Assembly (NCBI GenBank): GCA_017503865.1 | Contig: JAFVSI010000050.1 | Coordinates: forward strand, 64,224-128,223 | Source of the DNA: Clostridia bacterium | GTDB taxonomy: Bacteria; Bacillota; Clostridia; Oscillospirales; CAG-272 | DNA: 64,000 nt | Direction of reading: 5' to 3' | In this document: in pieces, positions 2,583-60,650 of the stretch | Position numbering within the stretch: the first letter of the stretch is position 1 | Layout of the letters: every line of letters begins with the position of its first letter | Notes under the pieces: generated by a model | What the model was told of the DNA's origin: nothing | Seen by the model: the letters and a program-made list of their open reading frames with translations, nothing else | Databases searched by the model: none | Position numbers and translations under genes: made by a program

Positions 2583-2629
2583 GATTGTGATATAATATAG
2601 CCACGAGGCGTGACTAATTAAAAACAATA

Positions 2630-2797
2630 ACAGATAGCTCTCCATCATTTTTGATGACAGCCCGACAGCTATGAACCGTCGGACCAGCAATATCACTGCC
2701 GCCGTGATAAAACTTCGGCACCTTACACTCGAAAACAAAGCTCAAACGGCTACGGCTTCCTCGCTTTGCTTCGGTTGAAAAATGCACCTCTATCCTT
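2630..2797 (-). promoter_or_regulatory. Lysine riboswitch (L-box) in the dapA-dapB leader
   Basis: The minus strand reads GATAGAGGTGCATTTTTCAACCGAAGC...GTAAGGTGCCGAAG...ATTGCTGGTCCGACGG...GGGCTGTCATCAAAAATGATGGAGAGCTATC. This matches the conserved blocks of the B. subtilis lysC L-box: GATAGAGGTGCGAACTTCAAG, GTCGCCGAAG, TTTGCTGGCCG and AAGGCTGTCAAG. Confidence 0.85.
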
Positions 2798-2818
2798 TAT
2801 TATATGTCCTTACGGAAT

Positions 2819-39984: not shown

Positions 39985-40413
39985 TTATGCGTTATCCTTT
40001 AAATACTCAAGAGCCATTTTGTATCCGTCAAATCCGTGTCCGCAAATTGTCTTTTTCGCGACCATCGAAACGTATGAGAACTGACGGAATTTCTCTCGCT
40101 TTGAGATGTCCGAGATGTGCACCTCAACGGTAGGAATAGCGACAGCTTTGAGAGCATCGAGAATGGCTACACTTGTGTGTGTATATGCGGCGGGATTTAT
40201 AACTATTCCGTCGTATACACCGTATGCCGCTTGAATAACGTCAACTATTTCACCCTCGTGATTAGACTGAAAAAGCGAGACGGAAATGCCAAGTTCGTTT
40301 GCAGAGGTTTTGATAAACTCCTCAAGTGCCTTAAAGTTTTGAGCACCGTAAACATCGGGCTCACGAATACCGAGCATATTTATATTTGGACCGTTAATTA
40401 CAAGGACTTTCAT
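39985..40413 (-). CDS. aroQ: 3-dehydroquinate dehydratase, type II
   Basis: 142 aa. MKVLVINGPNINMLGIREPDVYG, FQSNHEGEIVD, INPAAYTHTSVA. Confidence 0.93.
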   Translation of the reverse strand: MKVLVINGPNINMLGIREPDVYGAQNFKALEEFIKTSANELGISVSLFQSNHEGEIVDVIQAAYGVYDGIVINPAAYTHTSVAILDALKAVAIPTVEVHISDISKREKFRQFSYVSMVAKKTICGHGFDGYKMALEYLKDNA

Positions 40414-40415
40414 TT

Positions 40416-41666
40416 TTAAACTCCTGACTTTGCCAAAGCAATAATTTCGTTTGCTGCATTTTCTGCCGTACTGTTATTATAAATTCTTCGGTCGGAAAAA
40501 TCAATATAGAGCGGCAATCTTTCGCTATAAAGTTTTTCTATACCAACTGACTTCGAAATAGGTCTGTTTGTCGATGTAAGCTTTTTGAGATCCCTTTCAA
40601 CAAAGAATATTACACCGTTTTGATGAAGGGGTGCATAGTTTTCTTTTCTTGTGACAATGCCACCGCCCGTTGAAATCACACAACCCGATTTCTTTCCAAG
40701 CTCCTTGACGACAGAATGTTCCATTTTGCGGAATTTGTCAACTCCGAGCTTATCAATTGCCTCGGCGGGTGTCACAGAAAAGCACTTTTCAAATTCCTCG
40801 TCGCTGTCAAAGAAGGGCTTGTTTGTTTTCTCTGAAATGATTTTTCCAATAGTTGTTTTTCCCGACGAGGGCATTCCAATAAGTACGATATTTGTCATAT
40901 CATAGGAAATGGTCTTTTCAATTCTCTCGATCTCGGTGTCATCGATAGATCTGTCTGTAAATATCTCTGCCGCCTTTTTAGCTTGTGCAACGAGCATTGA
41001 AAGACCGCCGCAGTACTTTATACCGAGCGACTCAGCTTCAAGCAAGAGAGCGGTTTTTTGAGGATTATATATTATGTCAACAATGCCAATACAAGCATTA
41101 AATTGCCTAAGGTCAATAAGCTTTGCCTCGTTATTTGGGAACATTCCGACGGGAGTGGTGTTTACGATGATTTCAGCATCAAAATGTTTTGAGATGTTTT
41201 CGTAATTATCCTCTCCGCTTCTTGACACCGTTATTATTTCACTTACACCGAGGTTTTTTAGTACAGCCTTCACTGGCATTGAAGCTCCGCCTGAGCCAAG
41301 CACAAGAGCTTTTTTGCCAGACACGTCGAGATGGCTTTTTTTGAGTGTATATTCAAAGCCGTAATAGTCGGTGTTAAATCCTCGAAGAGAGCCGTCGGGC
41401 ATTCTTTTAACAGTATTTACAGCACCTATCGCTTGAGCCTCGGGAGAAAGCGATGCGAGGTACTTTATAACGTCCTTTTTATAGGGAATCGTGACGTTTA
41501 AAAAATCAAACTCGCAAGACAGCATAAAATGTTCAAGGTCTTTGGGGGCAACCTCCTTGATACCGTAAGAATAGTCAGCAAGAAGGGAATGGATCTGAGG
41601 TGAAAATGTGTGAGGTAGCTTTTCACCGAGGACAAACCCCTTTAAGTTCGAAAAGCCCTTTATCAT
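40416..41666 (-). CDS. Bifunctional shikimate dehydrogenase / shikimate kinase (AroE-AroK fusion)
   Basis: The N-terminal roughly 270 aa carry SPQIH, NVTIPYK and LGSGGA (AroE). The C-terminal roughly 150 aa carry LIGMPSSGKTTIGK and ISTGGG (AroK). Start set at MIKGFSN, whose ATG overlaps the pheA stop (ATGA). Confidence 0.88.
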   Translation of the reverse strand: MIKGFSNLKGFVLGEKLPHTFSPQIHSLLADYSYGIKEVAPKDLEHFMLSCEFDFLNVTIPYKKDVIKYLASLSPEAQAIGAVNTVKRMPDGSLRGFNTDYYGFEYTLKKSHLDVSGKKALVLGSGGASMPVKAVLKNLGVSEIITVSRSGEDNYENISKHFDAEIIVNTTPVGMFPNNEAKLIDLRQFNACIGIVDIIYNPQKTALLLEAESLGIKYCGGLSMLVAQAKKAAEIFTDRSIDDTEIERIEKTISYDMTNIVLIGMPSSGKTTIGKIISEKTNKPFFDSDEEFEKCFSVTPAEAIDKLGVDKFRKMEHSVVKELGKKSGCVISTGGGIVTRKENYAPLHQNGVIFFVERDLKKLTSTNRPISKSVGIEKLYSERLPLYIDFSDRRIYNNSTAENAANEIIALAKSGV

Positions 41667-42808
41667 ATGACCTCCGAATATGTACCGAGGTACGTGAAAT
41701 CCTCGCAAGCCTGCTCAAGCTCCGAGAGAAGCTGGGCAAATCTTTCGGAATATACCGATGCCTCGAGGTCAAAGTAGAACATAAATTCAAAATTAGAGTC
41801 GGGAATAGGTCTTGATTCAAGCTTCAAAAGATTTATTCCAAGAGAATTGAATCTTGAAAGAATCTTGTAAAGTGAACCGGGCCTATGAGGTGTTACGAGC
41901 ATAAGGCTTGTTTTATCAGCTCCGGGATAAACCTCAAGCTCCTTGGTAATACAAATAAATCTTGTTTGATTGTTTGAATTATCCTGTACGTTCTTAGCAA
42001 TCACGTCAAGTCCGTACTGTTCCTTGCAGGAGTGAGAGGACAAAGAAGCAACGTCGTTTCTATCGGACGTAGCTACCATGAGTGCAGCCTTTGCAGTATT
42101 CTCAACGCAGGTCACCTTAACGTCACGGGGAAGCGTTGCGAGAAATTTTTGACACTGATTTATTGCTTGCTCGTGTGAGAATATTTCTTTGACTTCAGAG
42201 AGCTTTGTGCCTTTTTTGCCGAGGAGATTGTGGTCGATCTTCACTCTTACCGAACGCACTATTTTAAAGTTGTGCTCTTTCATAAGGTCGTAAACCTGCT
42301 TGACAGAGCCTGCGGTACTGTTCTCGATGGGGAGAATACCGTAGCGGCACATCTTTGCTTCAATTGCAGAAAAAACTGCATTGAAGTTTGAAAAATAAGT
42401 AATGGTAGGAAGACGGAAAAGCTTTTCTGCCGCTACCTGAGAGTATGCCCCCTCAACACCCTGACAAGCAACAGACGCACATTCGGGAAAAATTTTCGGA
42501 GTGTTTTCTATTGCCTTTTCAATGCTTAAATAGGACGCCGAGGTATTGCCGAGGATCTTGTGCTGATAAGAACGTGAGAGATCGAGAATTGTTGCATACA
42601 AAGTTCTCGTATATTCCTCAAAATCCTCACCCGAAAGCTCCGAAACCTTATTAAGCAAGGTTCTTTCTCTTGATGAGTCAAGTATAGGCATATTATTAGC
42701 ACGCTTATATTCGGCAACGCTTGCCGAAAGAGTCATTCTTTTTATATAGAGGTCGACAAGCTCGGCATCTACCTGGTCAATTTCTTTTCTGATTTCATTA
42801 AGTTCCAT
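41663..42808 (-). CDS. pheA: Bifunctional chorismate mutase / prephenate dehydratase (P-protein)
   Basis: 381 aa. N-terminal CM domain (LNEIRKEIDQVDAELVDLYIKRM), PDT domain (ACQGVEGAYS, TRF), and C-terminal ACT domain (GSLYKILSRFNSLGINLLKLESRP). Confidence 0.92.
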   Translation of the reverse strand: MELNEIRKEIDQVDAELVDLYIKRMTLSASVAEYKRANNMPILDSSRERTLLNKVSELSGEDFEEYTRTLYATILDLSRSYQHKILGNTSASYLSIEKAIENTPKIFPECASVACQGVEGAYSQVAAEKLFRLPTITYFSNFNAVFSAIEAKMCRYGILPIENSTAGSVKQVYDLMKEHNFKIVRSVRVKIDHNLLGKKGTKLSEVKEIFSHEQAINQCQKFLATLPRDVKVTCVENTAKAALMVATSDRNDVASLSSHSCKEQYGLDVIAKNVQDNSNNQTRFICITKELEVYPGADKTSLMLVTPHRPGSLYKILSRFNSLGINLLKLESRPIPDSNFEFMFYFDLEASVYSERFAQLLSELEQACEDFTYLGTYSEVI

Positions 42809-42811
42809 TTA

Positions 42812-44017
42812 TTATGTCCTCTTTTTAGAAAGATTTTTAAACTTATTTACGAATTTTAAAAGTACGATCATTATAACAGGGAAGATGACGGAAAAGAGGA
42901 ATGCCGCTTTAAGGTCATCGTTAAATATTGCGGCTACACAGCCCGCAAGAGTTGGGCCGACAAGGCAACCGAGGTCGCCCGCAAAAGCTAAGAGTGCGAA
43001 CATACTTACGCTTTGATAAGGGAGATATTTTCCTGCAAGGCTGTAAGTTCCCGGCCATAGAACTCCGCAAGAAAAACCGCAAATTATAAATCCAATAAGT
43101 GTGAGGAGCGGTGACTGTGAAAAGACAACAATGAGAAAGGACACTGTACACATTATTGATGAAAGAAACATATAGCTTCTCAGCTTGATCTTTGAACTGA
43201 AAAGGGAATAGAGAATTCTCGAAAGTCCCATAAATATCGCAAATGCGAACGGACCGAGCAAGTCTCCGTAGGTTTTTGATACGCTAAGTCCCGTTTCGGC
43301 AAAGCTTGATGCCCACTGTCCCATTGCCTGTTCAGCCGCACCCGCACACATCATTATACCGAAGAAAATCCAAAAAATCGGAATTTTTGAAAGAGACGGG
43401 GTCTTTACGTCACCCTCTTGTTCCTTGTCACCGTCAAGCTTGTATATTGGCACGAAGCAAAATCCAATTGCACCGACGAAGGGGATAATTGCCCAAAGTG
43501 CTGAGAGAATTCTCCAGTTGTGAAGACCGAATGTAGAGAAGAATACCGTTGAAAGCAAAACGACAATTGCAAGTCCCCACGAATAAAACGAGTGAAGCGT
43601 TGCCATCATAGCACTTTTCTTCTTTTCAGGGGTGGGACACGCTTCTACTATCGGACTTATAACAATCTCTATAAATCCGCTGCCCACAGCCGCCAAAACT
43701 GTGGCTATAACAAGACCGAAATAGGGATTTGGCATAACGTCAGGCAAGAAGGAAAATCCTACCATACCTAAAACCGCCAACAAATGAGCTAAAACGCACA
43801 TTAAGCGAAGGTTAAGCTTTTTTGAAAATTTTGCGACCAAAAGGTCGGTTAAAAACTGAGTTGTAAACGATATTCCAATTAAAAGACTTATAAGAGAAAG
43901 AGAAATGCCGAAATCCTTTTCAAAGGTGTTGAAAAGCAGAGGGGAGAAATTTATCGCTATCGCTTGTACAACGTACCCAATAAAAGAAAAGAAGATCGTA
44001 AACCTATATGATTTCAT
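42812..44017 (-). CDS. MFS transporter embedded in the aromatic operon, substrate unknown
   Basis: 401 aa, 12 predicted TM segments. Gaps to its flanking genes are 9 nt and 3 nt. Confidence 0.85.
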   Translation of the reverse strand: MKSYRFTIFFSFIGYVVQAIAINFSPLLFNTFEKDFGISLSLISLLIGISFTTQFLTDLLVAKFSKKLNLRLMCVLAHLLAVLGMVGFSFLPDVMPNPYFGLVIATVLAAVGSGFIEIVISPIVEACPTPEKKKSAMMATLHSFYSWGLAIVVLLSTVFFSTFGLHNWRILSALWAIIPFVGAIGFCFVPIYKLDGDKEQEGDVKTPSLSKIPIFWIFFGIMMCAGAAEQAMGQWASSFAETGLSVSKTYGDLLGPFAFAIFMGLSRILYSLFSSKIKLRSYMFLSSIMCTVSFLIVVFSQSPLLTLIGFIICGFSCGVLWPGTYSLAGKYLPYQSVSMFALLAFAGDLGCLVGPTLAGCVAAIFNDDLKAAFLFSVIFPVIMIVLLKFVNKFKNLSKKRT

Positions 44018-44026
44018 AAAACACCT

Positions 44027-45103
44027 TTAATCACACAACATATCGAATATTGCAATCGCCGCAGCCGCTTCAAATACGGGAACGGCACGGACGGCAACAC
44101 ATGGATCGTGCCTTCCGTTGATCTTGAGCTTTGTATTTGTCATACTGTCAAGGTCGACGCTGTCCTGCTCAATGAAAATTGAGGGAGTTGGTTTCATAGC
44201 GGCACGGAAAATAAGAGGCATTCCGCTTGTCATTCCGCCAAGAATTCCACCTGCATTATTTGTCTTGGTAAATACCTTTTCACCGTCAGTATAAAAAGCA
44301 TCGTTGTTTTTTGAGCCTCGGAGCTTTGCACACTCAAATCCGTTTCCAAATTCGATACCCTTAACTGCGGGTATTCCGAAAACTATAGAGGAAATTCTAT
44401 TCTCAACGCCCGAGAACATATGCTCGCCAAGACCTATTGGAAGACCTATAGCGGCACACTCGATTATAGCACCTATAGAGTCACCGTCCTGCTTTGCAGA
44501 AAGGATTTCTGCTTTCATTAGTTCAGCTGACTCGTTTGAGAGAGTGGGGAAGTCCTTTCCGTGTATCGCGTCAAAGTCGGACTTTGAAACGTTAATACTG
44601 TCAAATGCTTTACCCAGAGCATTTCCAACGGAATAAAGCTGTGCCCCTATATGTATTCCTTTTTGTTCAAGAATTTGCAGACAAATTCCGCCTGCTATGC
44701 ACATTGGAGCGGTGAGCCTTCCCGAAAAATGACCGCCACCGCGAAGGTCAACGTCCTTGCCGTATTTCATTCTTGCCGCAAAGTCTGCGTGCGAGGGGCG
44801 GGGAATAAAGGAATCCTTTTGGTAGTCCTTCGAACGTTGATTTTTGTTATAAACAACTGCGTGAACTGTGTTTTCTGTTATTACTCCGTCGGTTACGCCT
44901 TCGAGAAAAACAGGAAGGTCTGCTTCTTTGCGAGGGGTTGAGAACTCGTTGTTACCGGGTGCTCGGCGAGATAGGAAAGCAAGGAGCTTTTCCTCATCGA
45001 TTTTAAAGCCAATTGGAAGCCCCTTAATAATAACACCGATACGCTCTTCGTGAGAACCGCCGTATATTTCAACATCAATGTTTTGTCCGTAATGAGTTGC
45101 CAT
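44027..45103 (-). CDS. aroC: Chorismate synthase
   Basis: 358 aa. GGSHEE, RPSHAD, GGGHFSGR and GRHDPC motifs. Confidence 0.95.
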   Translation of the reverse strand: MATHYGQNIDVEIYGGSHEERIGVIIKGLPIGFKIDEEKLLAFLSRRAPGNNEFSTPRKEADLPVFLEGVTDGVITENTVHAVVYNKNQRSKDYQKDSFIPRPSHADFAARMKYGKDVDLRGGGHFSGRLTAPMCIAGGICLQILEQKGIHIGAQLYSVGNALGKAFDSINVSKSDFDAIHGKDFPTLSNESAELMKAEILSAKQDGDSIGAIIECAAIGLPIGLGEHMFSGVENRISSIVFGIPAVKGIEFGNGFECAKLRGSKNNDAFYTDGEKVFTKTNNAGGILGGMTSGMPLIFRAAMKPTPSIFIEQDSVDLDSMTNTKLKINGRHDPCVAVRAVPVFEAAAAIAIFDMLCD

Positions 45104-46377
45104 TATTTTTCGTCCCCTTCGTTAATTATTTCGATATTGAATCCTAATTTTTTCATATCCTCAAAGAAACGGGGATATGATTTTTTTACTGCATCGGCAT
45201 TTTTAATAACGACTTTGTCTTTGCAACCAAGAGCTGCAACGCACGCACACATGGCAATTCTATGGTCATTGTGCGAGAGAACAATTCCGCCGGTAAGACG
45301 TTCTTTTCCGTTGATCATAAATCCGTCATCAAGAAGTTTTATGTCTGCACCGAGATTTGTTAGCATCTCATAAGTAGTTTGCAGTCTATCACTCTCTTTT
45401 ATACGAAGTCTTGATGCACCGGTGATTATTGTAGTTCCTTTTGCTAAAGAAGCAACAACTGCAATTATAGGTACAAGGTCTGGAATATCCTTTGCGTCAA
45501 TTTCAATACCTGAAAGAGACTTGCCGGCAACTGTAACCGAATCGTGGGACTTTTCAACGTTTGCCCCAAATTTCTCGAGAATTTCAAGAATTCGAGCATC
45601 TCCCTGACGGGTGTTTGCAGAAAGATTATTGAGCGTTACAGATGTTTTTGAAATAGCAGCGGCACACAAAGGAAATGCACTGTTTGACCAGTCGCCTTCA
45701 ACAGTATATTCGCCCTTTGAGGAGAGCTGACTTCCGCAAATATTAAATATATTTCCGTTTCTCTTGACGTCTGCACCGAAGGAATTTAGCGTATCAAGCG
45801 TCATATTAACGTAAGGTTCTGACTCAAGCTTTCCCGTTATCTCAAGTGTGCTTTCGCCGTCAAGAAGGGAAAGTGCAAACAGCAATCCGCTAATAAACTG
45901 CGAGGAAACCTCACCGCTTATTTTATATGTGCCACACGTAAGCTTTCCGCATGTCTTAAGCTTGTTGGTATCAAGGTATTCAAAGGATATCCCATGTGCA
46001 ATAAGCTCTTCCTTAAGAGGAGAGAGAGGTCGTTCGGGAAGTCGTCCTCGCATATCGAAGATCCACTCACCGCCAATTGCAGCGGCGATAGGTAATAGTA
46101 ATCTTAAGGTCGTTCCGCTTTCGTTGCAGAAAAGAGTTCCGCTCTTGTTTTTTTCTTTCGGATGAACTTCAAAAACTTTGTTTTCATATTTTATCTCAGC
46201 TCCTAACGAACGCAGACAATCGGCTGTCGCGAGTATGTCTTCACTAACTGTCTCGCAAAGGAGCTTTGTTCTTTCGTTTGAAAAAGCTGAAGCAATAAGC
46301 AAACGGTGAGCGGCAGATTTTGATGAAATAGCCAAAATCTCTCCGCTTATATTTGAGGGTTTTACAATGGTGTTCAT
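45103..46377 (-). CDS. aroA: 3-phosphoshikimate 1-carboxyvinyltransferase (EPSP synthase)
   Basis: 424 aa. SKSAAHR, NESGTTLRLL, DIPDLVPIIAV, ESDRL and DHRIAM motifs. Confidence 0.95.
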   Translation of the reverse strand: MNTIVKPSNISGEILAISSKSAAHRLLIASAFSNERTKLLCETVSEDILATADCLRSLGAEIKYENKVFEVHPKEKNKSGTLFCNESGTTLRLLLPIAAAIGGEWIFDMRGRLPERPLSPLKEELIAHGISFEYLDTNKLKTCGKLTCGTYKISGEVSSQFISGLLFALSLLDGESTLEITGKLESEPYVNMTLDTLNSFGADVKRNGNIFNICGSQLSSKGEYTVEGDWSNSAFPLCAAAISKTSVTLNNLSANTRQGDARILEILEKFGANVEKSHDSVTVAGKSLSGIEIDAKDIPDLVPIIAVVASLAKGTTIITGASRLRIKESDRLQTTYEMLTNLGADIKLLDDGFMINGKERLTGGIVLSHNDHRIAMCACVAALGCKDKVVIKNADAVKKSYPRFFEDMKKLGFNIEIINEGDEK

Positions 46378-47429
46378 TTATCAAGCCCTCTTTCAATAAA
46401 GCTCTCAAGCTCACCAATGTGAGTTTTTACAAGTCTTGTATCACCAATATTATATGGTATTGCAAGAGTAATGGTGTTGCCCTTGCGTTTTTTGTCTGAT
46501 AATGCAACTTCAGCAAGCTCTTTTGCCGTGAAATCACACTCTGTTGGAAGAGAGTTTTCCTTTAATATTTTGATTATATTTTCGAGTGTAGATACTTCGC
46601 AAATACCGACGTTTACAGCAGAACGCGTTACGATAACCATACCGATTGCAACTGCACTTCCGTGAGAAATTTTGAAATTTGAACATTTTTCAACTGCGTG
46701 TCCTATTGTATGACCAAGATTCAAAAGTTGACGGCAGCCGTTGTCGAATTCATCTTTTTCAACTATAAGGCTTTTGTTTTTGACACAAGATGCGACAACC
46801 TCGTCAATGTTCTCGCGTATGCTCGAGCTTATTAGTGAGAAAAGCTCGATGTCATTGATCACTCCGTACTTAATAACCTCAGCACAACCGTCTGCGAAAA
46901 TTTCTGGAGTAAGGGTGTTAAGAAGGGAAGTGTCGCAAATTACAAGTGAAGGCTGATGAAAAGCCCCCGCTAAGTTTTTTCCTGTTCTTAGGTCAATTCC
47001 TGTTTTCCCGCCAACTGAGGAATCGACCATCGCAAGTAAGGTCGTGGGGATTTGAACGAATCTGATGCCGCGAAGGTAAACGGAAGCCGCAAAGCCTGCT
47101 ATATCTCCCACAACACCGCCGCCGAGAGCAAATATACAGTCGGAACGGGTTAGTCCCGAAGTTGCTAAAAATTCAAGAATGTCAACAAACGTATTTGCAT
47201 TTTTTGACTCTTCTCCTGCTTCAAAAACGAATTTTGAAACGTTGTATCCGGCACCTTCAAGCGACTCGATGAGTGTTTTTGAATACAGCTTGTCAACGTT
47301 TGAGTCGGTAATAACCGCACAGTTACATACACCAACAGCCTTTGCCGCAAGCTCACCCGACTTCGATAAAATATCGCTGTCAATTATTATGTTATATTGT
47401 TTTGAAGCATTTACCGTAATGGTCTTCAT
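46374..47429 (-). CDS. aroB: 3-dehydroquinate synthase
   Basis: 351 aa. LGGGVVGDIAGFAA, SVGGKTGI, NLGHTIGHA and HGSAVAIGM motifs. Confidence 0.94.
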   Translation of the reverse strand: MKTITVNASKQYNIIIDSDILSKSGELAAKAVGVCNCAVITDSNVDKLYSKTLIESLEGAGYNVSKFVFEAGEESKNANTFVDILEFLATSGLTRSDCIFALGGGVVGDIAGFAASVYLRGIRFVQIPTTLLAMVDSSVGGKTGIDLRTGKNLAGAFHQPSLVICDTSLLNTLTPEIFADGCAEVIKYGVINDIELFSLISSSIRENIDEVVASCVKNKSLIVEKDEFDNGCRQLLNLGHTIGHAVEKCSNFKISHGSAVAIGMVIVTRSAVNVGICEVSTLENIIKILKENSLPTECDFTAKELAEVALSDKKRKGNTITLAIPYNIGDTRLVKTHIGELESFIERGLDK

Positions 47430-47443
47430 AATTATTACCTTCC

Positions 47444-48274
47444 TTAACCGTCAATATTTTCTTTTGCAATTCTTCCGTCTCGAAGTAGATCTCTTAAAGT
47501 ATCTGCGTCATCATTTTTTATTGCGTCTTTATATTCGTTAAGCGAGTTTATAATTGTGTCGATCTCAAAGAGAAGAGGCTCTTTGTTTTCAAGAAAAAGC
47601 TCAGTCCACATATTCTCATTGAGCCAGGCAACACGAGTCATATCCTTATAGCTTCCTGCCGAAAATCCCTTATGATTTGCAGCCGTTGGGCTCTTAACGT
47701 ATGCGTTTGAAACAACGTGAGCAAGCTGTGAGGTGAAAGCTATCATAGAGTCGTGCTGTTCTGCAGTTGTTACCGAAAAACGTGCAAAACCTGCGGGCTT
47801 AAGCATTGTTTTGATTCTATCAAGAAAAGATATATCATCATAAATGGGCGGTACAATTACCATAGGTGCATTTTTAAAAAGTGTCGACTTAGAATACTTG
47901 ATTCCTGAATACTGAGTGCCCGCCATTGGATGTCCGCCTACAAAGGTGAATCCGTATTTGCTTGCAAGTGCCATTCCAGCTTCACAAACTAACTTTTTAG
48001 TACCGCACAAATCCATAACGATTGTATCTTTATTGACAAATTCAGCAATTGAACTAAGATATTCAATCGTTGCCTCTGGGTAAAGAGCGATAAAGATCAA
48101 TTCGCAAGTTTTAAGAGTATCCTTATTCAATTCGCCGTCAATTATCGAGGCAAGAGATGCAAAACCGAGAGTGCTCGAGTCTTTATCGTATCCCAAAACC
48201 GTATGACCTTCAGCCTTATAAGCTTTAGCCATTGAACCGCCAATAAGACCGAGTCCGCAAATTCCAACAGTCAT
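47444..48274 (-). CDS. tyrA: Prephenate dehydrogenase
   Basis: 276 aa. ICGLGLIGGSMA Rossmann motif, GGHPMAG, and HDSMIAFTSQLAHV. Confidence 0.88.
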   Translation of the reverse strand: MTVGICGLGLIGGSMAKAYKAEGHTVLGYDKDSSTLGFASLASIIDGELNKDTLKTCELIFIALYPEATIEYLSSIAEFVNKDTIVMDLCGTKKLVCEAGMALASKYGFTFVGGHPMAGTQYSGIKYSKSTLFKNAPMVIVPPIYDDISFLDRIKTMLKPAGFARFSVTTAEQHDSMIAFTSQLAHVVSNAYVKSPTAANHKGFSAGSYKDMTRVAWLNENMWTELFLENKEPLLFEIDTIINSLNEYKDAIKNDDADTLRDLLRDGRIAKENIDG

Positions 48275-48300
48275 AATAATATCCTTTCTAAAACACTGCT

Positions 48301-49299
48301 TTAAAGCACACTACGTACTTTTCTGACTGCATCACAAACGTCTGCAAACGTTTCGGGTGTAATCGACTGTGCACCGTCACAAAGAGCGTGAGGGGGATCG
48401 TTGTGAACTTCAATCATAAGACCGTCAGCACCGACAGCAGTTGCTGCAAGCGAAAGAGGTTTGACGAGCTTAGCGATACCCGTTGCGTGGGACGGATCGA
48501 TAACGATAGGAAGATGCGAAAGCTCCTTGAGCATTGGAACAGCAGAGAGGTCAAGTGTGTTTCTCGTGTATGTTTCGAAGGTTCTTATGCCTCTCTCGCA
48601 GAGAATAATATTTTCGTTTCCGCCTGCCATTATGTATTCTGCTGACATAAGAAGCTCCTTAAGGGTGTTAGCGAGACCTCGCTTCAAAAGGATTGTCTTT
48701 TTTGTTCTGCCAAGCTCCTTTAACAGCTCGAAGTTTTGCATATTTCTTGCACCGACTTGGATTACGTCAACGTCTAAGAAAAGATCAAGATGATTTGCGT
48801 TCATTATTTCGGTAACTATAGGAAGTCCTGTCTCCTTTTTAGCTCTAATGAGATAATCGATGCCGTCAGCCTTGAGTCCCTGAAAATCATAGGGGGAAGT
48901 GCGTGGCTTGAAAGCTCCGCCGCGAAGCATTGTAGCACCTGCGGCTTTTACGGATTTTGCTATCTCCATAACCTGTTCCTCGCTCTCAACTGAGCATGGA
49001 CCTGCTATTATTGTAAAATCATTACCGCCTACTGATGTGTTACCAACTTCAATTACAGTATTGTCGGGGTGAAATTTTCTATTAGCATTTTTAAACGGCT
49101 CGGTAATTCTCTTGACAGAATCAACGATTTCAAGGCTTGAGAGAAGCTCGGCGTCGATTTTCGAGGTGTCGCCTACAAGACCGATTATCGTATGTTCCTT
49201 ACCGAAAGAGATGTGAGTGTCAACACCTTGAGTGTGTAGCCAATTAGTAAGATTTTCGATTTGTTTTTCGGAGGTTCCTTGTTTAAGTACGGCAATCAT
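48301..49299 (-). CDS. aroF: 3-deoxy-7-phosphoheptulonate (DAHP) synthase, type I-beta, with an N-terminal ferredoxin-like regulatory domain
   Basis: 332 aa. The roughly 65-aa N-terminal domain (MIAVLKQGTSEKQIENL...) resembles the Thermotoga-type regulatory domain. The catalytic barrel carries AGPCSVES, GAFKPRTSPY, KRG and DPSH. Confidence 0.92.
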   Translation of the reverse strand: MIAVLKQGTSEKQIENLTNWLHTQGVDTHISFGKEHTIIGLVGDTSKIDAELLSSLEIVDSVKRITEPFKNANRKFHPDNTVIEVGNTSVGGNDFTIIAGPCSVESEEQVMEIAKSVKAAGATMLRGGAFKPRTSPYDFQGLKADGIDYLIRAKKETGLPIVTEIMNANHLDLFLDVDVIQVGARNMQNFELLKELGRTKKTILLKRGLANTLKELLMSAEYIMAGGNENIILCERGIRTFETYTRNTLDLSAVPMLKELSHLPIVIDPSHATGIAKLVKPLSLAATAVGADGLMIEVHNDPPHALCDGAQSITPETFADVCDAVRKVRSVL

Positions 49300-49325
49300 T
49301 TCTATATATCTCCTTGAAATAAATT

Positions 49326-49368
49326 TAAAATAAAATAAGCCCTTCGGTGTTTATCACCGGAAGGCTTC
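49326..49368 (-). terminator. Intrinsic terminator inside the aroF leader (attenuator)
   Basis: Minus strand GAAGCCUUCCGGUG-AUAAA-CACCGAAGGGCUU (12 pairs, one internal mismatch), then AUUUUAUUUU. It lies between the promoter and the aroF RBS. There is no U-tract on the plus strand. Confidence 0.75.
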
Positions 49369-49429
49369 AATACATAAACTTAAAAATTTATGAAATTAAA
49401 AATCCGCAGACAAAAGCACCTTTATTTTA

Positions 49430-49486
49430 TTAACCAATGCAATAAAAATAAAGGTAAAAATATTTGTTTACGAATACGTTTTTCAT
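49430..49486 (-). CDS. Candidate leader peptide MKNVFVNKYFYLYFYCIG (18 aa, 4 Tyr + 3 Phe)
   Basis: ATG at 49486 is preceded by GGGAG (49501-49497, 10-nt spacing) and lies downstream of the predicted promoter. The stop is TAA. The aromatic codons overlap a hairpin (49418-49455). Confidence 0.5.
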   Translation of the reverse strand: MKNVFVNKYFYLYFYCIG

Positions 49487-49520
49487 AAAAAACAAACTCC
49501 CAAATAAGAAATATGAGTTA

Positions 49521-49549
49521 AGTTTAGCACTATAAAAATGCTTTGTCAA
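49521..49549 (-). promoter_or_regulatory. Promoter of the aromatic amino-acid operon
   Basis: Minus strand TTGACA (49549-49544), 17 nt, TAAACT (49526-49521). Confidence 0.6.
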
Positions 49550-49665
49550 GGTTTTTTTGGAAAAAATTAAAAAAAGTTTTTTCAAAAGTAGCGTATTGTA
49601 AGTAAGTAATGCAAAATACACAAAAAAGAGTCCTCTAAAATCTTAATCTTTTGCTTTTAGAAAGG

Positions 49666-49694
49666 TTGACAATTTTAAATATATATGATATAAT
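49666..49694 (+). promoter_or_regulatory. Consensus sigma-A promoter of the pur operon
   Basis: TTGACA, 17 nt, TATAAT with an extended TGn (TGATATAAT). Confidence 0.7.
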
Positions 49695-49727
49695 TCTAAC
49701 AGTATAAATCAACGCAAGTTGAAGCGG

Positions 49728-49800
49728 TTTTTTGTGACCGACGGGAAGTGGAATTGACCACGTGGGAGCAAGAAGCAATATTGTCGACCGTCTGGGCAGT
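49728..49800 (+). promoter_or_regulatory. ZTP (pfl-motif) riboswitch aptamer
   Basis: UUUUUUGUGACCGACGGGAAGUGGAAUUGACCACGUGGGAGCAAGAAG...GUCGACCGUCUGGGCAG matches the remembered pfl consensus GUGACUGGCG..GGUGG..CCACC.GGGAGC ... CGACCGCCUGGGCA. The pseudoknot partners GACGG/CCGUC covary relative to GGCG/CGCC. Its position upstream of purine genes is as expected. Confidence 0.8.
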
Positions 49801-49833
49801 CCTTCCTTTATGGGGTAGGATTGCCTTATTTTT
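49795..49833 (+). terminator. Expression-platform terminator of the ZTP riboswitch
   Basis: Stem GGCAGUCCUUCC/GGGGUAGGAUUGCC (one mismatch, one G-U), then UUAUUUUU. Its 5' arm overlaps the conserved CUGGGCAG of the aptamer, the geometry expected for an ON switch. Confidence 0.7.
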
Positions 49834-49860
49834 GTTTTAAGGAGAAAAGGAGTAAAGAAA

Positions 49861-50358
49861 ATGAAAAAAGTCGGAATAGTGATGGGAAGTGACAGCGACC
49901 TTCCGGTTGTTGAAAAAGCAATAGCGGTGCTTGAGGAATACGGGGTTCCTTTTGAGGTTCACGTTTATTCTGCTCACAGAACACCCGTTGAAGCAAGGGA
50001 TTTTACCGTATCGGCAAGAGAGAACGGTTTTGGTGCTATAATCGCAGCTGCAGGAATGGCAGCTCACCTCGCGGGAGCTATAGCGGCAAATACCACTCTT
50101 CCTGTAATTGGAATTCCCGTTAAGTCTAAAAATTTTGACGGTCTTGACGCACTTTTGTCAACTGTTCAAATGCCTACAGGAATTCCCGTTGCTACCGTAG
50201 CTATTGACGGTGCTGCAAACGCAGCTATCCTTGCTATACAGATGCTTGCAATAGAGGACAAGTCCCTTGCAGCTAAGCTTCTTGAAAATAGAGAAGCAGG
50301 CACCCGCAAGGTTCTTGAAAAAAATGCGGCGATTTGCGAGAAGTATAACAAGGCTTAA
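49861..50358 (+). CDS. purE: N5-carboxyaminoimidazole ribonucleotide mutase
   Basis: 165 aa. VGIVMGSDSDLPV, SAHRTP, AAGMAAHLAG, PVIGIP. Confidence 0.95.
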   Translation: MKKVGIVMGSDSDLPVVEKAIAVLEEYGVPFEVHVYSAHRTPVEARDFTVSARENGFGAIIAAAGMAAHLAGAIAANTTLPVIGIPVKSKNFDGLDALLSTVQMPTGIPVATVAIDGAANAAILAIQMLAIEDKSLAAKLLENREAGTRKVLEKNAAICEKYNKA

Positions 50359-50372
50359 CTTTAGGGGGTATT

Positions 50373-51797
50373 ATGGGCGGATTTTTTGGCGTTGTAAGTA
50401 AGCGAGACGCTATTTCAGACGTTTTCTTCGGAACCGATTATCATTCTCATCTCGGCACAAAGCGAGGAGGAATGGCGGCTTACGATAAGGAAATCGGACT
50501 TCAAAGAGAAATTCATAAAATTGAAAATTCACCGTTTAGAACAAAATTCGAAGACGTTCTTATTGAAATGAGAGGCAATTCGGCTATCGGCTGCATTAGT
50601 GATACTCACCCACAGCCCTTGCTGATTCGTTCAAATATCGGAACTTACGCGATAAGTATTGTCGGACGTATAAACAATTCGGAAGAGCTTATTGAGAAAT
50701 ATCTTCTGCCTAACGGTGGTCATTTTGGCGTAATGACGGGCGGACTTGTAAACTCTGTTGAGCTTGTTGCATCACTTATCAATCATAAATCGAATTTTAC
50801 AGAGGGAATTAAATTTACCCAAGACGTAATTGATGGCTCTGTCTCGATCCTTATTCTAAAAGATAACGGGGATTTGATTGCAGCACGTGATAAGCTTGGT
50901 AGAATCCCTGTAATTATTGGAAAAAACGAAGACGGATATAGCGTATCTTTTGAGTTTTTTGCATTTGAAAAGTTGGGTTATGTTACCGAAAAAGAGCTGG
51001 GGCCGGGTGAGATTGTAGAACTTACACCTGACAGCATGACACAGCTTTCACCTCCCGGTAATGAAATGAAAATGTGTTCATTCCTTTGGACATATTATGG
51101 CTATTCAAACTCAACTTACGAGAATGTAAACGTTGAACTTATGCGATACAAAAACGGAAAAATTCTCGCTGAAAATGATAGGGCAGCGGGAATTGCAACC
51201 GATATAGATTATGTTTGCGGTGTTCCTGATTCGGGTACGCCCCACGCAATAGGATATGCTAATGAAAGCGGAGTTCACTTTGCTCGCCCCTTTATTAAAT
51301 ATACTCCTACCTGGTCGCGTAGCTTTACACCTTCAACACAGCAAGAGAGAAACAAAGTTGCCAAGATGAAGCAGATTCCCGTTAAAGAGCTTATTGAGGG
51401 AAAAAAGCTTTTGTTTGTTGATGATTCGATTGTAAGAGGTACACAGCTCAAGGAAACCGTAGATTTTCTTTATGACCACGGAGCAAAGGCGGTTCACATG
51501 CGTTCTGCTTGTCCCCCAATTATGTACGGGTGTAAATATCTCAATTTTTCGAGAGGAACGAGTGACCTTGACCTTATCGCAAGAAGAACAATTCTTGAGC
51601 TTGAGGGAGAGTCAGGGTTTGACTATATAGAAGAGTATTCCGATCCATCAACCGAGCGAGGTAAAAAGCTTCGCAGAACGATTGCGGACAAGTTCAATTT
51701 TGATTCACTTGAATTCCAATCGCTTGAAGGAATTATCAAGGCAATAGGTATTGAGCCTTGCAAACTATGCACTTATTGTTGGAACGGAAAAGAATAA
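50373..51797 (+). CDS. Amidophosphoribosyltransferase-like protein (PurF position) lacking the N-terminal Cys nucleophile
   Basis: 474 aa. The C-terminal PRTase domain has the PRPP loop LLFVDDSIVRGTQ. The N-terminus is MGGFFGV where canonical PurF has (M)CG(I/V)xG. The start is well supported (RBS AGGGGG, 4-nt spacer). Confidence 0.8.
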   Translation: MGGFFGVVSKRDAISDVFFGTDYHSHLGTKRGGMAAYDKEIGLQREIHKIENSPFRTKFEDVLIEMRGNSAIGCISDTHPQPLLIRSNIGTYAISIVGRINNSEELIEKYLLPNGGHFGVMTGGLVNSVELVASLINHKSNFTEGIKFTQDVIDGSVSILILKDNGDLIAARDKLGRIPVIIGKNEDGYSVSFEFFAFEKLGYVTEKELGPGEIVELTPDSMTQLSPPGNEMKMCSFLWTYYGYSNSTYENVNVELMRYKNGKILAENDRAAGIATDIDYVCGVPDSGTPHAIGYANESGVHFARPFIKYTPTWSRSFTPSTQQERNKVAKMKQIPVKELIEGKKLLFVDDSIVRGTQLKETVDFLYDHGAKAVHMRSACPPIMYGCKYLNFSRGTSDLDLIARRTILELEGESGFDYIEEYSDPSTERGKKLRRTIADKFNFDSLEFQSLEGIIKAIGIEPCKLCTYCWNGKE

Positions 51798-60466: not shown

Positions 60467-60508
60467 AAAACAAAACACCTTTGAGAGTAAAATCTCAAAG
60501 GTGTTTTT
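60467..60508. terminator. Bidirectional terminator after purL; probably also used by glmM
   Basis: 12-bp stem ACACCTTTGAGA/TCTCAAAGGTGT flanked by an A-rich run and a T-run. Confidence 0.8.
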
Positions 60509-60650
60509 ATATATTTTGAACTTCATTTTGTTTTGTAATTACTCACATATTTGTAGAAGCTCTGCGACAGCTTTTCAAATGCTACCGATGAGGCACCCGC
60601 CGAAATTTCGAAAACCTCATACCTCGTCAACCGCAAAAGCGGTCTGGCGC

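Follow-up and report, generated by a model that had tools for sequence, protein, structure and literature searches.

Among the described systems closest to the one considered here, the aroR leader peptide of C. glutamicum precedes an aroF operon, carries Phe-Tyr-Phe codons and is attributed to ribosome-mediated attenuation, as far as PMC11802643 relates it (Neshat et al., 2014, via PMC11802643); by the same secondary account, its response is to Phe only, not to Tyr. Another is uORFC-13-1, an upstream ORF candidate located exclusively upstream of aroF in Acholeplasma and in environmental sequences, which its authors proposed to act by attenuation (Brewer et al., 2021, PMC8632094). It lies directly before an intrinsic terminator and has a promoter, a ribosome-binding site, a start codon, a U-run coding for Phe, and an extra base-paired substructure. 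Its 24 sequences, with Acholeplasma laidlawii PG-8A (NC_010163.1, 32% GC) as the seed, are described as encoding 'at least one Phe', and the description does not include Tyr sensing, an antiterminator, or presence in Clostridia (PMC8632094). Leader-peptide attenuators for other amino acids are known in Firmicutes, namely those of his genes in the B. cereus group, C. difficile and Erysipelotrichales, those of leu genes in Streptococcus and Lactococcus (PMC2965389, PMC9413887, PMC5314783), and the ilv-leu attenuator of S. aureus (PMC5794164).

How, then, is the common aromatic pathway controlled in Clostridia? Neither Rfam 15 nor the searchable literature yielded a regulator for operons of the kind described below, and no aromatic leader peptide in Clostridia was found in that literature. 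Here, we describe a leader upstream of aroF in a stretch of 64,000 nucleotides, which we call the window; its source is a metagenome-assembled genome of an uncultured bacterium. Judging from the sequence and from folding models, this leader is probably a ribosome-mediated transcription attenuator that senses charged tRNA-Tyr and charged tRNA-Phe together. The kind of regulator, a leader-peptide attenuator, is already known; a Tyr/Phe member in front of aroF in Clostridia would be new.

Architecture of the aroF leader

The regulated operon has the gene order aroF, tyrA, aroB, aroA, aroC, an MFS transporter gene, pheA, an aroE-aroK fusion and aroQ, where pheA is the chorismate mutase/prephenate dehydratase gene. 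None of the nine genes belongs to the Trp branch, and this list agrees with a preliminary description, made by reading the sequence, in which the operon was said to serve chorismate, Phe and Tyr. The promoter, the Shine-Dalgarno (SD) sequence, the 18-codon ORF, the hairpin and the terminator of that description were all recovered at identical positions. They are listed in Table 1 together with the helices found in this work.

Table 1. Features of the aroF leader and its operon, in window coordinates
Feature	Position	Strand	Details
Promoter	49521..49549	-	-35 TTGACA 49549-49544, 17-nt spacer, extended -10 TGcTAAACT 49529-49521
SD sequence of leader ORF	49497..49501	-	GGGAG, 10 nt 5' of the ATG at 49486
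Leader ORF	49430..49486 (including stop)	-	MKNVFVNKYFYLYFYCIG; 18 codons + TAA
Region 1 core (helix b 5' strand)	49463..49475	-	AUUCGUAAACAAA; last base of codon 4 + codons 5-8
Regulatory codon run	49442..49462	-	Y F Y L Y F Y, codons 9-15; 6/7 Tyr/Phe; proposed ribosome stall sites
Helix c	49417..49456	-	UACCUUUAUUUU 49456-49445 (YLYFY codons) pairs AAAAUAAAGGUG 49428-49417, just 3' of stop codon; 12 bp
Helix a 3' strand	49387..49395	-	UUUCAUAAA; pairs start-codon region UUUAUGAAA 49489-49481
Antiterminator hairpin (predicted)	49350..49414	-	-16.5 kcal/mol
Intrinsic terminator	49326..49367	-	stem AAGCCUUCCGGUG 49367-49355 / CACCGAAGGGCUU 49349-49337, loop AUAAA, U-tract AUUUUAUUUU 49336-49326
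aroF ribosome-binding site and start codon	49297..49315	-	AAGGAG 49315-49310; start codon 49299-49297
Regulated operon	39985..49299	-	nine genes; aroF first, ATG at 49299

The spacer of the promoter ends in TG at 49529-49528, next to a -10 element TAAACT at 49526-49521 on the minus strand, and a promoter scanner counted 10 of 12 matches with the TG present. The promoter element GTGCTAAA(A/C)T is also found in four relatives (L001, L002, L004 and L102). From the position of the promoter, the transcription start is predicted at about 49514. If both strands of the 64-kb window are searched for SD-preceded short ORFs with at least five aromatic residues in eight, only two are obtained: one is the leader ORF, and the other sits within a long ORF on the opposite strand. 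A scan of the same 64 kb for leader ORFs with runs of other amino acids gave no credible one. The leader of 216 nt folds at -53.8 kcal/mol, compared with -33.3 +/- 3.6 kcal/mol for its shuffled versions (z -5.6). Its terminator has a stem of 12 bp with one bulge (-16.1 kcal/mol), and probably because of this bulge an automatic terminator scan of 48800-50400 returned nothing; terminators were scored with a custom finder and a shuffle control.

Conservation of the leader ORF and the terminator

Is such a leader a peculiarity of this genome? We fetched 80 aroF loci, mostly from Clostridia, and asked in 78 of them for an ORF with an ATG start, within 300 nt upstream of aroF, and with at least six Phe or Tyr residues in eight. 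An aromatic leader ORF was present in 53 of the 78, while the same test was passed by 1 of 780 shuffled sequences, by none of the 78 reverse complements, and by none of 75 regions 600-900 nt upstream. In at least 64 of 81 leaders, which come from many lineages of Clostridia, aroF is preceded by an SD-led short ORF with a run of Tyr and Phe and then by a terminator. Oscillospiraceae, Lachnospiraceae, Christensenellaceae and Anaerovoracaceae are among the carriers, and so are the cultured strains Angelakisella massiliensis Marseille-P3217 (L042), Pseudoflavonifractor sp. AF19-9AC (L025) and Hominicoprocola fusiformis CLA-AA-H269 (L009). Of the 64 homologous ORFs, 54 have an SD-like motif in front of them. 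A pattern scan of metagenomes gave 19 matches, of which eight, six of them distinct, are true leaders; the other 11 lie outside aroF leaders and were discarded as chance matches, mostly to one recurring unrelated sequence.

Across the family the aromatic run consists of 48% Tyr and 39% Phe. A leader has on average 4.0 Tyr codons and 4.75 Phe codons, and 62 of the 64 peptides contain at least two of each residue, while Trp occurs in only two. This near-absence of Trp matches an operon that has tyrA and pheA and lacks trp genes. The fraction of Phe and Tyr is 0.87 in the frame of the ORF, compared with 0.23 and 0.19 in the other two frames. Outside the Tyr/Phe run the peptides, 14 to 42 residues long, are highly diverse in sequence (the closest relative, L101, encodes MRNTFASKYFYLYFYCLG), and from this diversity it follows that selection acts on the class of codon, and neither on the fold of the peptide nor on any fixed motif in the RNA. 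All 64 leaders with an aromatic ORF have a terminator, 60 of them at -13 kcal/mol or stronger, as against 2 of 32 shuffled sequences, and the median is -19 kcal/mol in leaders and -5 kcal/mol in shuffles. Thus, the features expected of a pheL/trpL-type leader are found here, that is, a short ORF led by an SD sequence, a conserved cluster of cognate codons, and a terminator before the first structural gene.

Alternative pairings of the leader RNA

Folding of the minus-strand RNA gives three helices that can form before the terminator. Helix c is the hairpin over the aromatic codons that had been drawn in the preliminary description. Helix b pairs 49475-49463 with 49414-49402, and helix a closes the structure at the start codon. 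In a stepwise series of minimum free energy (MFE) folds, c, then b, then a are formed before the 5' arm of the terminator emerges. The predicted antiterminator uses region 2 (49414-49395), which pairs with 49371-49350; this stretch consists of the terminator 5' arm with its three preceding bases and the loop of the terminator. On the 5' arm, its contacts are made by CGGA 49406-49403, whose partner is UCCG 49361-49358, and by UUUUAAU 49401-49395; an inner hairpin joins 49392-49385 with 49380-49373, so that bases 49392-49387 of helix a have a second use. An antiterminator pairing suggested earlier by eye, AAG-GCUU with AAGC-CUU, was chosen by no fold, and it is the hairpin listed in Table 1 that is supported instead.

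The strand 49414-49402 is common to the antiterminator and helix b. In these models it is helix b, and not the aromatic-codon hairpin, which is the competitor of the antiterminator, an anti-antiterminator. The interaction between regions 1 and 2 in the window amounts to -16.2 kcal/mol (shuffles, -5.1 +/- 2.3), and a ribosome placed at codons 9-12, with a realistic footprint from -15 to +12 nt relative to the A site, covers the 5' strand of helix b, 49475-49463. For the antiterminator, the gain in free energy is -11.2 kcal/mol, compared with -5.2 +/- 2.2 kcal/mol for shuffles (z -2.8; -2.1 to -2.8 over the tests).

Both pairings can be followed in the family. The interaction of regions 1 and 2 has a mean of -14.7 kcal/mol against -6.2 in shuffles (mean z -3.0), 81% of leaders reach p<=0.05, and in ribosome-free folds the partners of region 2 are mostly located 3-25 nt before the first aromatic codon. 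Pairing of region 2 with the terminator 5' arm has a mean of -8.9 against -4.9 kcal/mol (mean z -1.7), and p<=0.05 is reached in 45% of leaders where 5% are expected. Compensatory changes occur in both of the alternative pairings among 10 close relatives. In the 11-member subfamily of the window, helix b shows double-sided compensation, for example UUCGUA/UGCGGA in the window and UUUGCA/UGCAAA in L004. Every one of the 11 members is predicted to form helix c, where the changes are to G-U pairs or one-sided. The antiterminator topology appears in 10 of the 11 relatives with the covarying cores CGGA:UCCG, CGAGA:UCUCG and CUGC:GCAG. In the wider family, conserved codons for '..LCC..' (UUGUGCUGCAA) are complementary both to F-A-A codons and to the terminator 5' arm. 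There, the AA and CC motifs of the peptides correspond to GCAGCUGCA pairing with UGCUGCAA, and the same region also pairs with the terminator 5' arm; Ala-Ala before and Cys-Cys after the aromatic run can thus be explained by the RNA pairing GCAGCUGCA/UGCUGCAA.

When the 11 leaders of the subfamily are aligned with MAFFT, region 2 is misplaced by 1-2 columns, and for this reason these comparisons were made with tables of partners for each sequence and not with column-based counts of pairs. If the whole 5' leader is left free to pair, the MFE structure takes other partners in four of the nine subfamily members folded, and such free folds of the ON state in L090, L093, L102 and L001 were rejected for their implausible partners upstream of the ribosome; folding was for this reason limited to the RNA 3' of the ribosome. 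The antiterminator is no better than shuffles in the close relatives L001, L002, L090 and L089. We regard the antiterminator (2:3) as moderately supported, and weakly so in some relatives. For the anti-antiterminator (1:2), a ribosome that stalls on the Tyr/Phe run would, in the models, sit on its 5' strand.

Taken together, the comparative evidence strongly supports the original idea of a ribosome-mediated attenuator made of a Tyr/Phe-rich leader peptide and a terminator in front of the aro operon. Of the features for which related leaders were to be inspected, the SD sequence and the aromatic codon run proved to be conserved, and compensatory changes in the hairpins were present.

Equilibrium and kinetics of folding

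One earlier result seemed to speak against attenuation. In folds with the aromatic codons masked, the terminator persisted, from which it was concluded that a model with a stalled ribosome was not supported. The persistence is reproduced here: with realistic ribosome footprints, and also with everything 5' of the ribosome blocked, the terminator state is better than the antiterminator by 5-8 kcal/mol at every ribosome position. The conclusion does not stand. It came from equilibrium MFE folds in which only codons 9-15 were masked, and is not decisive for that reason. In classical attenuators such as that of trp, the terminator is also the winner at equilibrium, and the structure formed first decides. 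Since equilibrium favors the terminator in trp as well, the fold result is no refutation, and since the terminator is the thermodynamic winner throughout, only kinetics can decide between the two states. An attenuator cannot be rejected on the strength of equilibrium MFE folds in which a narrow stretch is masked.

Could the leader instead be a constitutive partial terminator, which dims the operon and senses no amino acid, with an upstream ORF that affects only the stability of the mRNA or downstream translation? That the terminator is the equilibrium structure in all simulated conditions would fit such a device, and so would the support for the antiterminator, which is moderate and, in some relatives, absent. 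Yet a constitutive terminator leaves unexplained why the upstream ORF is enriched in codons for the very two amino acids made by the operon in more than 60 independent leaders, and why region 2 can pair with the ORF as well as with the terminator arm and covaries with them. We hold this explanation to be improbable.

Known RNA families and regulatory proteins

Alternatively, control of the terminator might lie with a factor or ligand that acts in trans on the leader RNA, as in an unknown riboswitch, in a divergent T-box reading tRNA-Tyr or tRNA-Phe, or with a TRAP- or PyrR-like protein, and the ORF would then be an incidental by-product of a structure rich in U and A. Such systems are what low-GC Gram-positives typically use (PMC2965389, PMC5314783, PMC9413887), the leader is as strongly structured as its z of -5.6 indicates, and GGUG(Y)UUUU and GCGG elements are kept in the subfamily. 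Rfam scans covered the whole window (gathering threshold), the leader (E<=10) and 20 related loci. They gave only matches at chance level, among them idnO, His_leader and PyrR, and every one scored far under its gathering value; known Rfam families were thereby ruled out as the identity of the leader. Phe_leader and Trp_leader gave no match up to E = 10 in the leader scan, and the only matches to a leader family were to His_leader, which scored 16.9 bits on the leader strand and 21.6 on the other strand, where gathering requires 49. No covariance-model match to T-box was found in the window leader or in the 20 related loci, and the leader has no T-box core motif. TRAP binding would call for 9-11 (G/U)AG triplets in a row with 2-3 nt between neighbors, and 222 nt contain three triplets with a longest chain of one. 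The lack of T-box and TRAP signatures noted earlier is thus borne out. Against any trans-acting switch, moreover, distant leaders share an SD sequence and an ATG frame rich in Tyr and Phe while they have no common sequence or fold, and the three competing helices account for the conserved nucleotides. On this evidence, a trans-acting switch is very improbable.

Finally, we give almost no credence to the ORF as a functional hydrophobic micropeptide, acting at the membrane or by nascent-chain arrest, whose aromatic residues serve the peptide and not the sensing of tRNA: the leader peptides are hydrophobic, and within some sub-groups they end in a common motif, for example SDLCCK, but their length of 14 to 42 residues varies and their sequence is free outside the Tyr/Phe run, the AA/CC motifs are explained by RNA pairing, and the ORF always precedes a terminator and then aroF.

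Proposed mechanism

We thus return to attenuation by a translating ribosome. The elements of the leader and their conservation are shown above, as are three pairings that exclude one another and covary; from these we infer how stalling, its timing and a response to Tyr and Phe might be combined. Transcription would start near 49514, and the leader ORF (49486-49430) would be translated while RNA polymerase moves on. With ample Tyr and Phe, the ribosome would clear codons 9-15, terminate at the UAA codon and depart. The long hairpin of helices c, b and a could then form or re-form and lock region 2 away, so that the 3' two-thirds of the terminator 5' arm would be free, the terminator (49367-49337) would form, and transcription would stop before aroF. 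If charging of tRNA-Tyr or of tRNA-Phe is low, the ribosome would stall in YFYLYFY, where its footprint would cover or sterically block helices b and c. Region 2 would then be free as the terminator 5' arm emerges, and the antiterminator (49414-49350) would allow read-through into the nine-gene operon.

The outcome would rest on the kinetics of folding, because the terminator wins at equilibrium by 5-8 kcal/mol, and the mechanism would presuppose tight coupling of transcription and translation in Clostridia. The stop codon in the window is located 62 nt 5' of the terminator, and a ribosome on this codon leaves region 2 uncovered. Therefore, the OFF state would need fast release of the ribosome and refolding. 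Many relatives are unlike the window in this respect, as there the terminating ribosome itself masks region 2.

Implications for Clostridia

With a confidence somewhat short of even, we propose that the window leader is a member of a large family of attenuators that sense Tyr and Phe together, uncatalogued in Rfam 15 and in the searchable literature, and located before aroF in most of the fetched Clostridia loci. If this is true, Clostridia would by default control the common aromatic pathway through ribosome-mediated attenuation and not through a T-box or TRAP, and the family would provide the first natural attenuator with Tyr codons as a main sensor. It would account for the control of Tyr, Phe and chorismate synthesis in many abundant Clostridia of gut and rumen, and these three compounds are precursors of many aromatic metabolites active in the host. 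It would also add a large and well-conserved case to the short list of amino-acid leader peptides in Firmicutes, and weaken the textbook split that assigns leader peptides to proteobacteria and T-boxes to Firmicutes. For annotation, a rule is gained that ORFs of this kind, of 14-42 codons, are to be taken as regulatory leaders, and the family would be a neat instance of RNA structure shaping the sequence of a peptide.

Comparison with known systems

The design resembles most that of pheL-pheA and trpL-trp in E. coli, which likewise have a promoter-proximal short ORF with a run of end-product codons, four RNA regions with alternative 1:2, 2:3 and 3:4 pairings, a terminator before the first structural gene, and a kinetic decision set by the position of the ribosome. 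The window leader has no similarity to them in sequence or by covariance model, and its host is a Firmicute of the Clostridia type, not a proteobacterium. While pheL and trpL sense one amino acid each, the proposed sensor of the window mixes Tyr and Phe codons and, from its place before aroF, would control a whole operon for the common pathway, Tyr and Phe. Also, its OFF state would be reached through refolding of the long hairpin, given the 62 nt between the stop codon and the terminator, and not through a ribosome that masks region 2 as in pheL and trpL.

As far as aroR of C. glutamicum is related in PMC11802643, it shares with the window a leader peptide before an aroF-containing operon, Phe and Tyr codons, and ribosome-mediated attenuation; compared by description, it differs in its actinobacterial host and in its three reported aromatic codons, against means of 4.0 Tyr and 4.75 Phe codons here. 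The window leader also fits, in a comparison at the level of description only, the features given for uORFC-13-1: position before aroF, terminator, promoter, ribosome-binding site, start codon and Phe U-run. uORFC-13-1 is absent from the Rfam 15 matches in our scans of the window; the GC content of the window is 42% and its aroF relatives are labelled Clostridia, whereas the seed genome of uORFC-13-1 has 32% GC. The two may represent the same or overlapping families, and the family described here may include or extend that 24-member Acholeplasma candidate. The his, leu and ilv-leu attenuators of Firmicutes have the same classical leader-peptide design, existing beside T-boxes, for other amino acids and operons, and the papers cited for them describe no Tyr/Phe leader in Clostridia. 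With T-box and TRAP systems, finally, the window leader would share the conditional read-through of a 5' terminator according to amino-acid supply; it differs from them in having neither tRNA-binding architecture nor protein-binding repeats, and the proposed sensor is the translating ribosome itself.

Conservation of the Tyr/Phe Leader Peptide

On the minus strand, ORF and domain annotation places aroF, tyrA, aroB, aroA, aroC, an MFS transporter gene, pheA (chorismate mutase/prephenate dehydratase), an aroE-aroK fusion and aroQ downstream of the leader, and none of them is a Trp-branch gene. The leader itself is most likely a ribosome-mediated attenuator responding to Tyr and Phe. This interpretation was already put forward in a preliminary description, whose promoter, SD, ORF, hairpin and terminator were all found again with unchanged coordinates, and it is supported and extended here by conservation of the ORF, the terminator and the alternative pairings. 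The 216-nt leader folds at -53.8 kcal/mol versus -33.3 +/- 3.6 kcal/mol for shuffles (z -5.6); its GC content is 25%, and that of the window 42%. Contig JAZQMM010000024.1 from an uncultured MAG (GCA_045543415.1), as well as several further assemblies, match the window.

Features of the aro leader in the window
Feature	Position	Strand	Basis
aro promoter	TTGACA 49549-49544, 17-nt spacer with TG at its end, TAAACT 49526-49521	minus	scanner, 10/12 matches, extended -10 TG
Leader SD GGGAG	49501-49497, 10 nt 5′ of ATG at 49486	minus	
Leader ORF, 18 codons, product MKNVFVNKYFYLYFYCIG	ATG 49486, TAA 49432-49430	minus	sequence
Aromatic run Y F Y L Y F Y, codons 9-15	49462-49442	minus	sequence
Helix a, with start-codon region	49489-49481 : 49395-49387	minus	full-length MFE
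Helix b, with AUUCGUAAACAAA (last base of codon 4 and codons 5-8)	49414-49402 : 49475-49463	minus	full-length MFE
Helix c (hairpin of the preliminary description), 12 bp	49456-49445 : 49428-49417	minus	fold
Antiterminator hairpin, 65 nt, -16.5 kcal/mol	49414-49350	minus	fold
Antiterminator inner stem	49392-49385 : 49380-49373	minus	fold
Antiterminator second segment, UUUUAAU : AUUGAAG	49401-49395 : 49371-49365	minus	fold
Antiterminator third segment, CGGA : UCCG	49406-49403 : 49361-49358	minus	fold
Antiterminator outer segment	49414-49409 : terminator loop	minus	fold
Terminator, 12 bp and one bulge, -16.1 kcal/mol, then AUUUUAUUUU	49367-49355 : 49349-49337	minus	fold
Regions 1; 2; 3; 4	ORF; 49428-49387; terminator 5′ arm; terminator 3′ arm	minus	
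aroF RBS AAGGAG and start codon	49315-49310; ATG 49299	minus	sequence

For comparison, 80 aroF loci were taken from one-genome-per-species collections, mostly labelled Clostridia, Lachnospiraceae, Oscillospiraceae, Ruminococcus, Faecalibacterium, Emergencia or Christensenellaceae, with a few Bacteroidaceae and one spirochaete. An ATG ORF of 8-45 codons with at least six Phe/Tyr in eight residues lies within 300 nt upstream of aroF in 53/78 loci; the same test gives 0/78 for the reverse complements, 1/780 for mononucleotide shuffles and 0/75 for the region 600-900 nt upstream. With the threshold lowered to five Phe/Tyr, 64 of 81 leaders pass (window included), and in three additional loci the aromatic ORF begins at a non-ATG codon or lies farther from the gene; in two loci another gene precedes aroF. 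The peptides, 14-42 residues long, have almost nothing in common beyond the run (e.g., MSLFVFAAAYFYFYFIMSQSKSDLCCK, MKSIFVFAYYYYFTMDS and MRSNLYFYYFNILF), which is 48% Tyr and 39% Phe across the family. At least two Tyr and two Phe are present in 62/64 peptides and Trp in 2/64, while an SD-like motif precedes 54/64 of the ORFs. Read in the ORF frame, the run has an F/Y fraction of 0.87, versus 0.23 and 0.19 for the remaining frames. Judged from these sequences, codon identity in a translated frame is under selection, which is what a tRNA-charging sensor requires. Conservation of an SD-like motif and compensatory changes in the hairpins of relatives, which the preliminary description had proposed to check, are both seen.

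A hairpin with a U-run stands between the ORF and aroF in 64/64 leaders, ending 14-114 nt 5′ of the aroF ATG, with a median of -19.3 kcal/mol; terminators of -13 kcal/mol or stronger occur in 60/64 leaders versus 2/32 dinucleotide shuffles of the same regions. The Bacteroidaceae loci L017, L035, L038 and L073 and the Spirochaetales locus L067 encode close AroF homologues (65-70% identity); upstream of aroF they show neither a convincing aromatic ORF (L073 has a weak stop-to-stop stretch only) nor any Rfam match. It seems that aroF moved between phyla minus its leader, or that regulation differs in these loci.

Alternative Structures and the Kinetic Model

The preliminary description had seen only a weak, interrupted antiterminator pairing. 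Folding of RNA 49514-49350, i.e., before the terminator 3′ arm exists, corrects this: the hairpin found (see table) is predicted to sequester most of the terminator 5′ arm. In the full-length MFE structure, helix b, the anti-antiterminator, is stacked between helices c and a, and its strand 49414-49402 is shared with the antiterminator. Together with the terminator, these structures provide the four classical attenuator regions. In a stepwise folding series, helix c appears when the transcript reaches 49415, helix b at 49400 and helix a at 49385, and all three precede the synthesis of region 3. When the first 5′-arm nucleotides emerge, a hairpin 49401-49365 forms that is compatible with helix b, competition being limited to its CGGA:UCCG extension. 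With the A site placed at codons 9-12, a ribosome footprint of -15 to +12 extends over the 5′ strand of helix b; farther along the run, helix b would have to close around the ribosome, which seems sterically implausible.

At any ribosome position, even with all RNA 5′ of the ribosome blocked, the folds favor the terminator state over the antiterminator state by 5-8 kcal/mol. An earlier fold test, from which the stalled-ribosome model had been judged unsupported, is thus reproduced as to the winner, but it is not decisive against the model where kinetics govern. In classical attenuators such as trp, the terminator is also the equilibrium winner, and the first structure formed during polymerase movement decides. 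Since the terminator wins at every ribosome position, the attenuator model is a kinetic one, and the outcome in the window would be set by folding kinetics. The window stop codon lies 62 nt before the terminator and a terminating ribosome leaves region 2 unmasked, so that the OFF state in its sub-family would have to depend on ribosome release, after which helices c, b and a close again rapidly. In many other leaders the stop is 13-25 nt before the terminator, and the terminating ribosome directly covers region 2. In 56/62 leaders, at least half of region 2 is either masked in this way or paired with region 1.

Statistical Support, Covariation and Other Explanations

Against dinucleotide shuffles, region 1:region 2 pairing averages -14.7 versus -6.2 kcal/mol (mean z -3.0; p<=0.05 in 81% of leaders; window -16.2 versus -5.1, z -4.8). 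Pairing of the upstream segment with the terminator 5′ arm averages -8.9 versus -4.9 kcal/mol (mean z -1.7; p<=0.05 in 45% of leaders, 5% expected; window -9.8 versus -4.8, z -2.1, or -2.8 for a tighter segment). The antiterminator is not better than shuffles in leaders L001, L002, L089 and L090.

A metagenome pattern scan added six distinct leaders (L101, L089, L090, L093, L097 and L102), which belong with L001, L002, L010 and L004 to an 11-member sub-family of close relatives. The OFF topology is identical in 11/11 members, with double-sided changes such as C-G to U-A, C-G to A-U, and A-U to G-C or C-G; helix b, for example, is UUCGUA/UGCGGA in the window and UUUGCA/UGCAAA in L004. In 10/11, a conserved motif 12-17 nt after GGUG pairs with the 3′ half of the terminator 5′ arm, and both sides co-vary: CGGA:UCCG (window, L101, L089, L010), CGAGA:UCUCG (L097), CGGGG:CUCUCG (L001) and CUGC:GCAG (L004).

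In the wider family, a conserved C-terminal tail, ..(S/N)(D/S)(L/F)CC(K/N/R), is shared by many leader peptides of the Oscillospiraceae type (L007, L008, L021, L023, L028, L029, L036, L045, L046, L050, L054 and L075); in the RNA, this recurrent LCC tail corresponds to region 2 (UUGUGCUGCAA). Where an F-A-A or similar motif exists, it precedes the run and corresponds to region 1. Where region 1 could be extracted (seven leaders), UUGUGCUGCAA complements the F-A-A codons UUUGCAGCUGCA at -6 to -12 kcal/mol, five of the values being -9 to -12. Its complementarity to the terminator 5′ arm likewise shows covariation (UUGUGUUGCAA with GCUACACAG for L050 and L054) and amounts to -12.3 kcal/mol in L008. 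The Ala-Ala and Cys-Cys residues are thus by-products of RNA pairing, a clear case of peptide "motifs" dictated by RNA structure.

A leader that senses nothing and only dims expression constitutively has a small chance of being correct, as it leaves amino-acid-specific, frame-specific conservation and the three-way complementarity unexplained. Slightly less probable still is a switch worked by a trans-factor of no known type. The absence of T-box or TRAP signatures, noted in the preliminary description, holds: no T-box core or TRAP-type triplet array is present in the leader, and no Rfam 15 family explains it, which excludes known RNA families at that database's sensitivity. A riboswitch, moreover, would leave no such preference for particular codons in one translated frame. 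That the ORF encodes a functional micropeptide is very improbable, since selection on codon identity would not be expected and the same conservation and complementarity stay unexplained.

Operon Neighbors and Other RNA Elements

The MFS-family gene (PF07690 only; 42812-44017, minus) lies between aroC and pheA; it would share the Tyr/Phe attenuator control, and its substrate might, as a guess, be an intermediate of the pathway or some aromatic compound. The ORF at 40416-41708 (minus) fuses shikimate dehydrogenase (aroE, residues ~15-265) to shikimate kinase (aroK, residues ~270-425); taken from its listed TTG start, it shares 46 nt with the end of pheA, and translation therefore probably begins at a later codon. 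Next to the aro leader and facing away from it, a perfect TTGACA-17-TATAAT promoter (49666-49694, plus) drives a ZMP/ZTP riboswitch (49724-49804, plus, 56.9 bits) 5′ of purE (49861-50358), which probably heads a pur operon because purL lies further downstream. Two RNA-based regulators thus diverge from within one intergenic region of 560 bp.

A full-length glmS ribozyme match (60508-60662, minus, 74.5 bits) overlaps the last 12 nt of glmM (60651-62006, minus), and the 3′ end of convergent purL (56771-60463, plus) is 45 nt beyond it; no glmS ORF follows on the minus strand in the window. In the independent assemblies L103-L105 a convergent gene starts ~190 nt after glmM, likewise with no glmS, which makes an assembly mis-join unlikely; the match may be an orphan or 3′-UTR ribozyme. 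A lysine riboswitch lies at 2627-2800 (minus, 73.1 bits), the next ORF on that strand being 1621-2514.

Comparison with Known Systems

A full-text literature search, with most subscription journals outside its scope, turned up no account of an aromatic leader peptide in Clostridia, and the window leader probably represents a large family that neither Rfam 15 nor the searched literature records. Although attenuation of this kind is textbook knowledge, the leader is worth annotating and would be easy to study experimentally, given its breadth in gut Clostridia, its mixed Tyr and Phe sensor and the clear covariation of the three-way pairing. Other documented Firmicutes leader peptides concern his, leu and ilv-leu (PMC2965389, PMC9413887, PMC5314783, PMC5794164), and ribosome-mediated attenuation has also been described for B. 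subtilis antibiotic-resistance genes. The leader is modeled to work in the same way as E. coli pheL and trpL, although it is not a member of their Rfam families. The closest experimentally studied analogue is the aroR leader peptide (Phe-Tyr-Phe) before C. glutamicum aroF, reported to respond to Phe, not Tyr (PMC11802643). The closest published description, which may cover the same or an overlapping family, is uORFC-13-1: 24 sequences upstream of aroF from Acholeplasma and environmental DNA (seed genome A. laidlawii PG-8A), adjoining a terminator and with a U-run that encodes Phe (PMC8632094).
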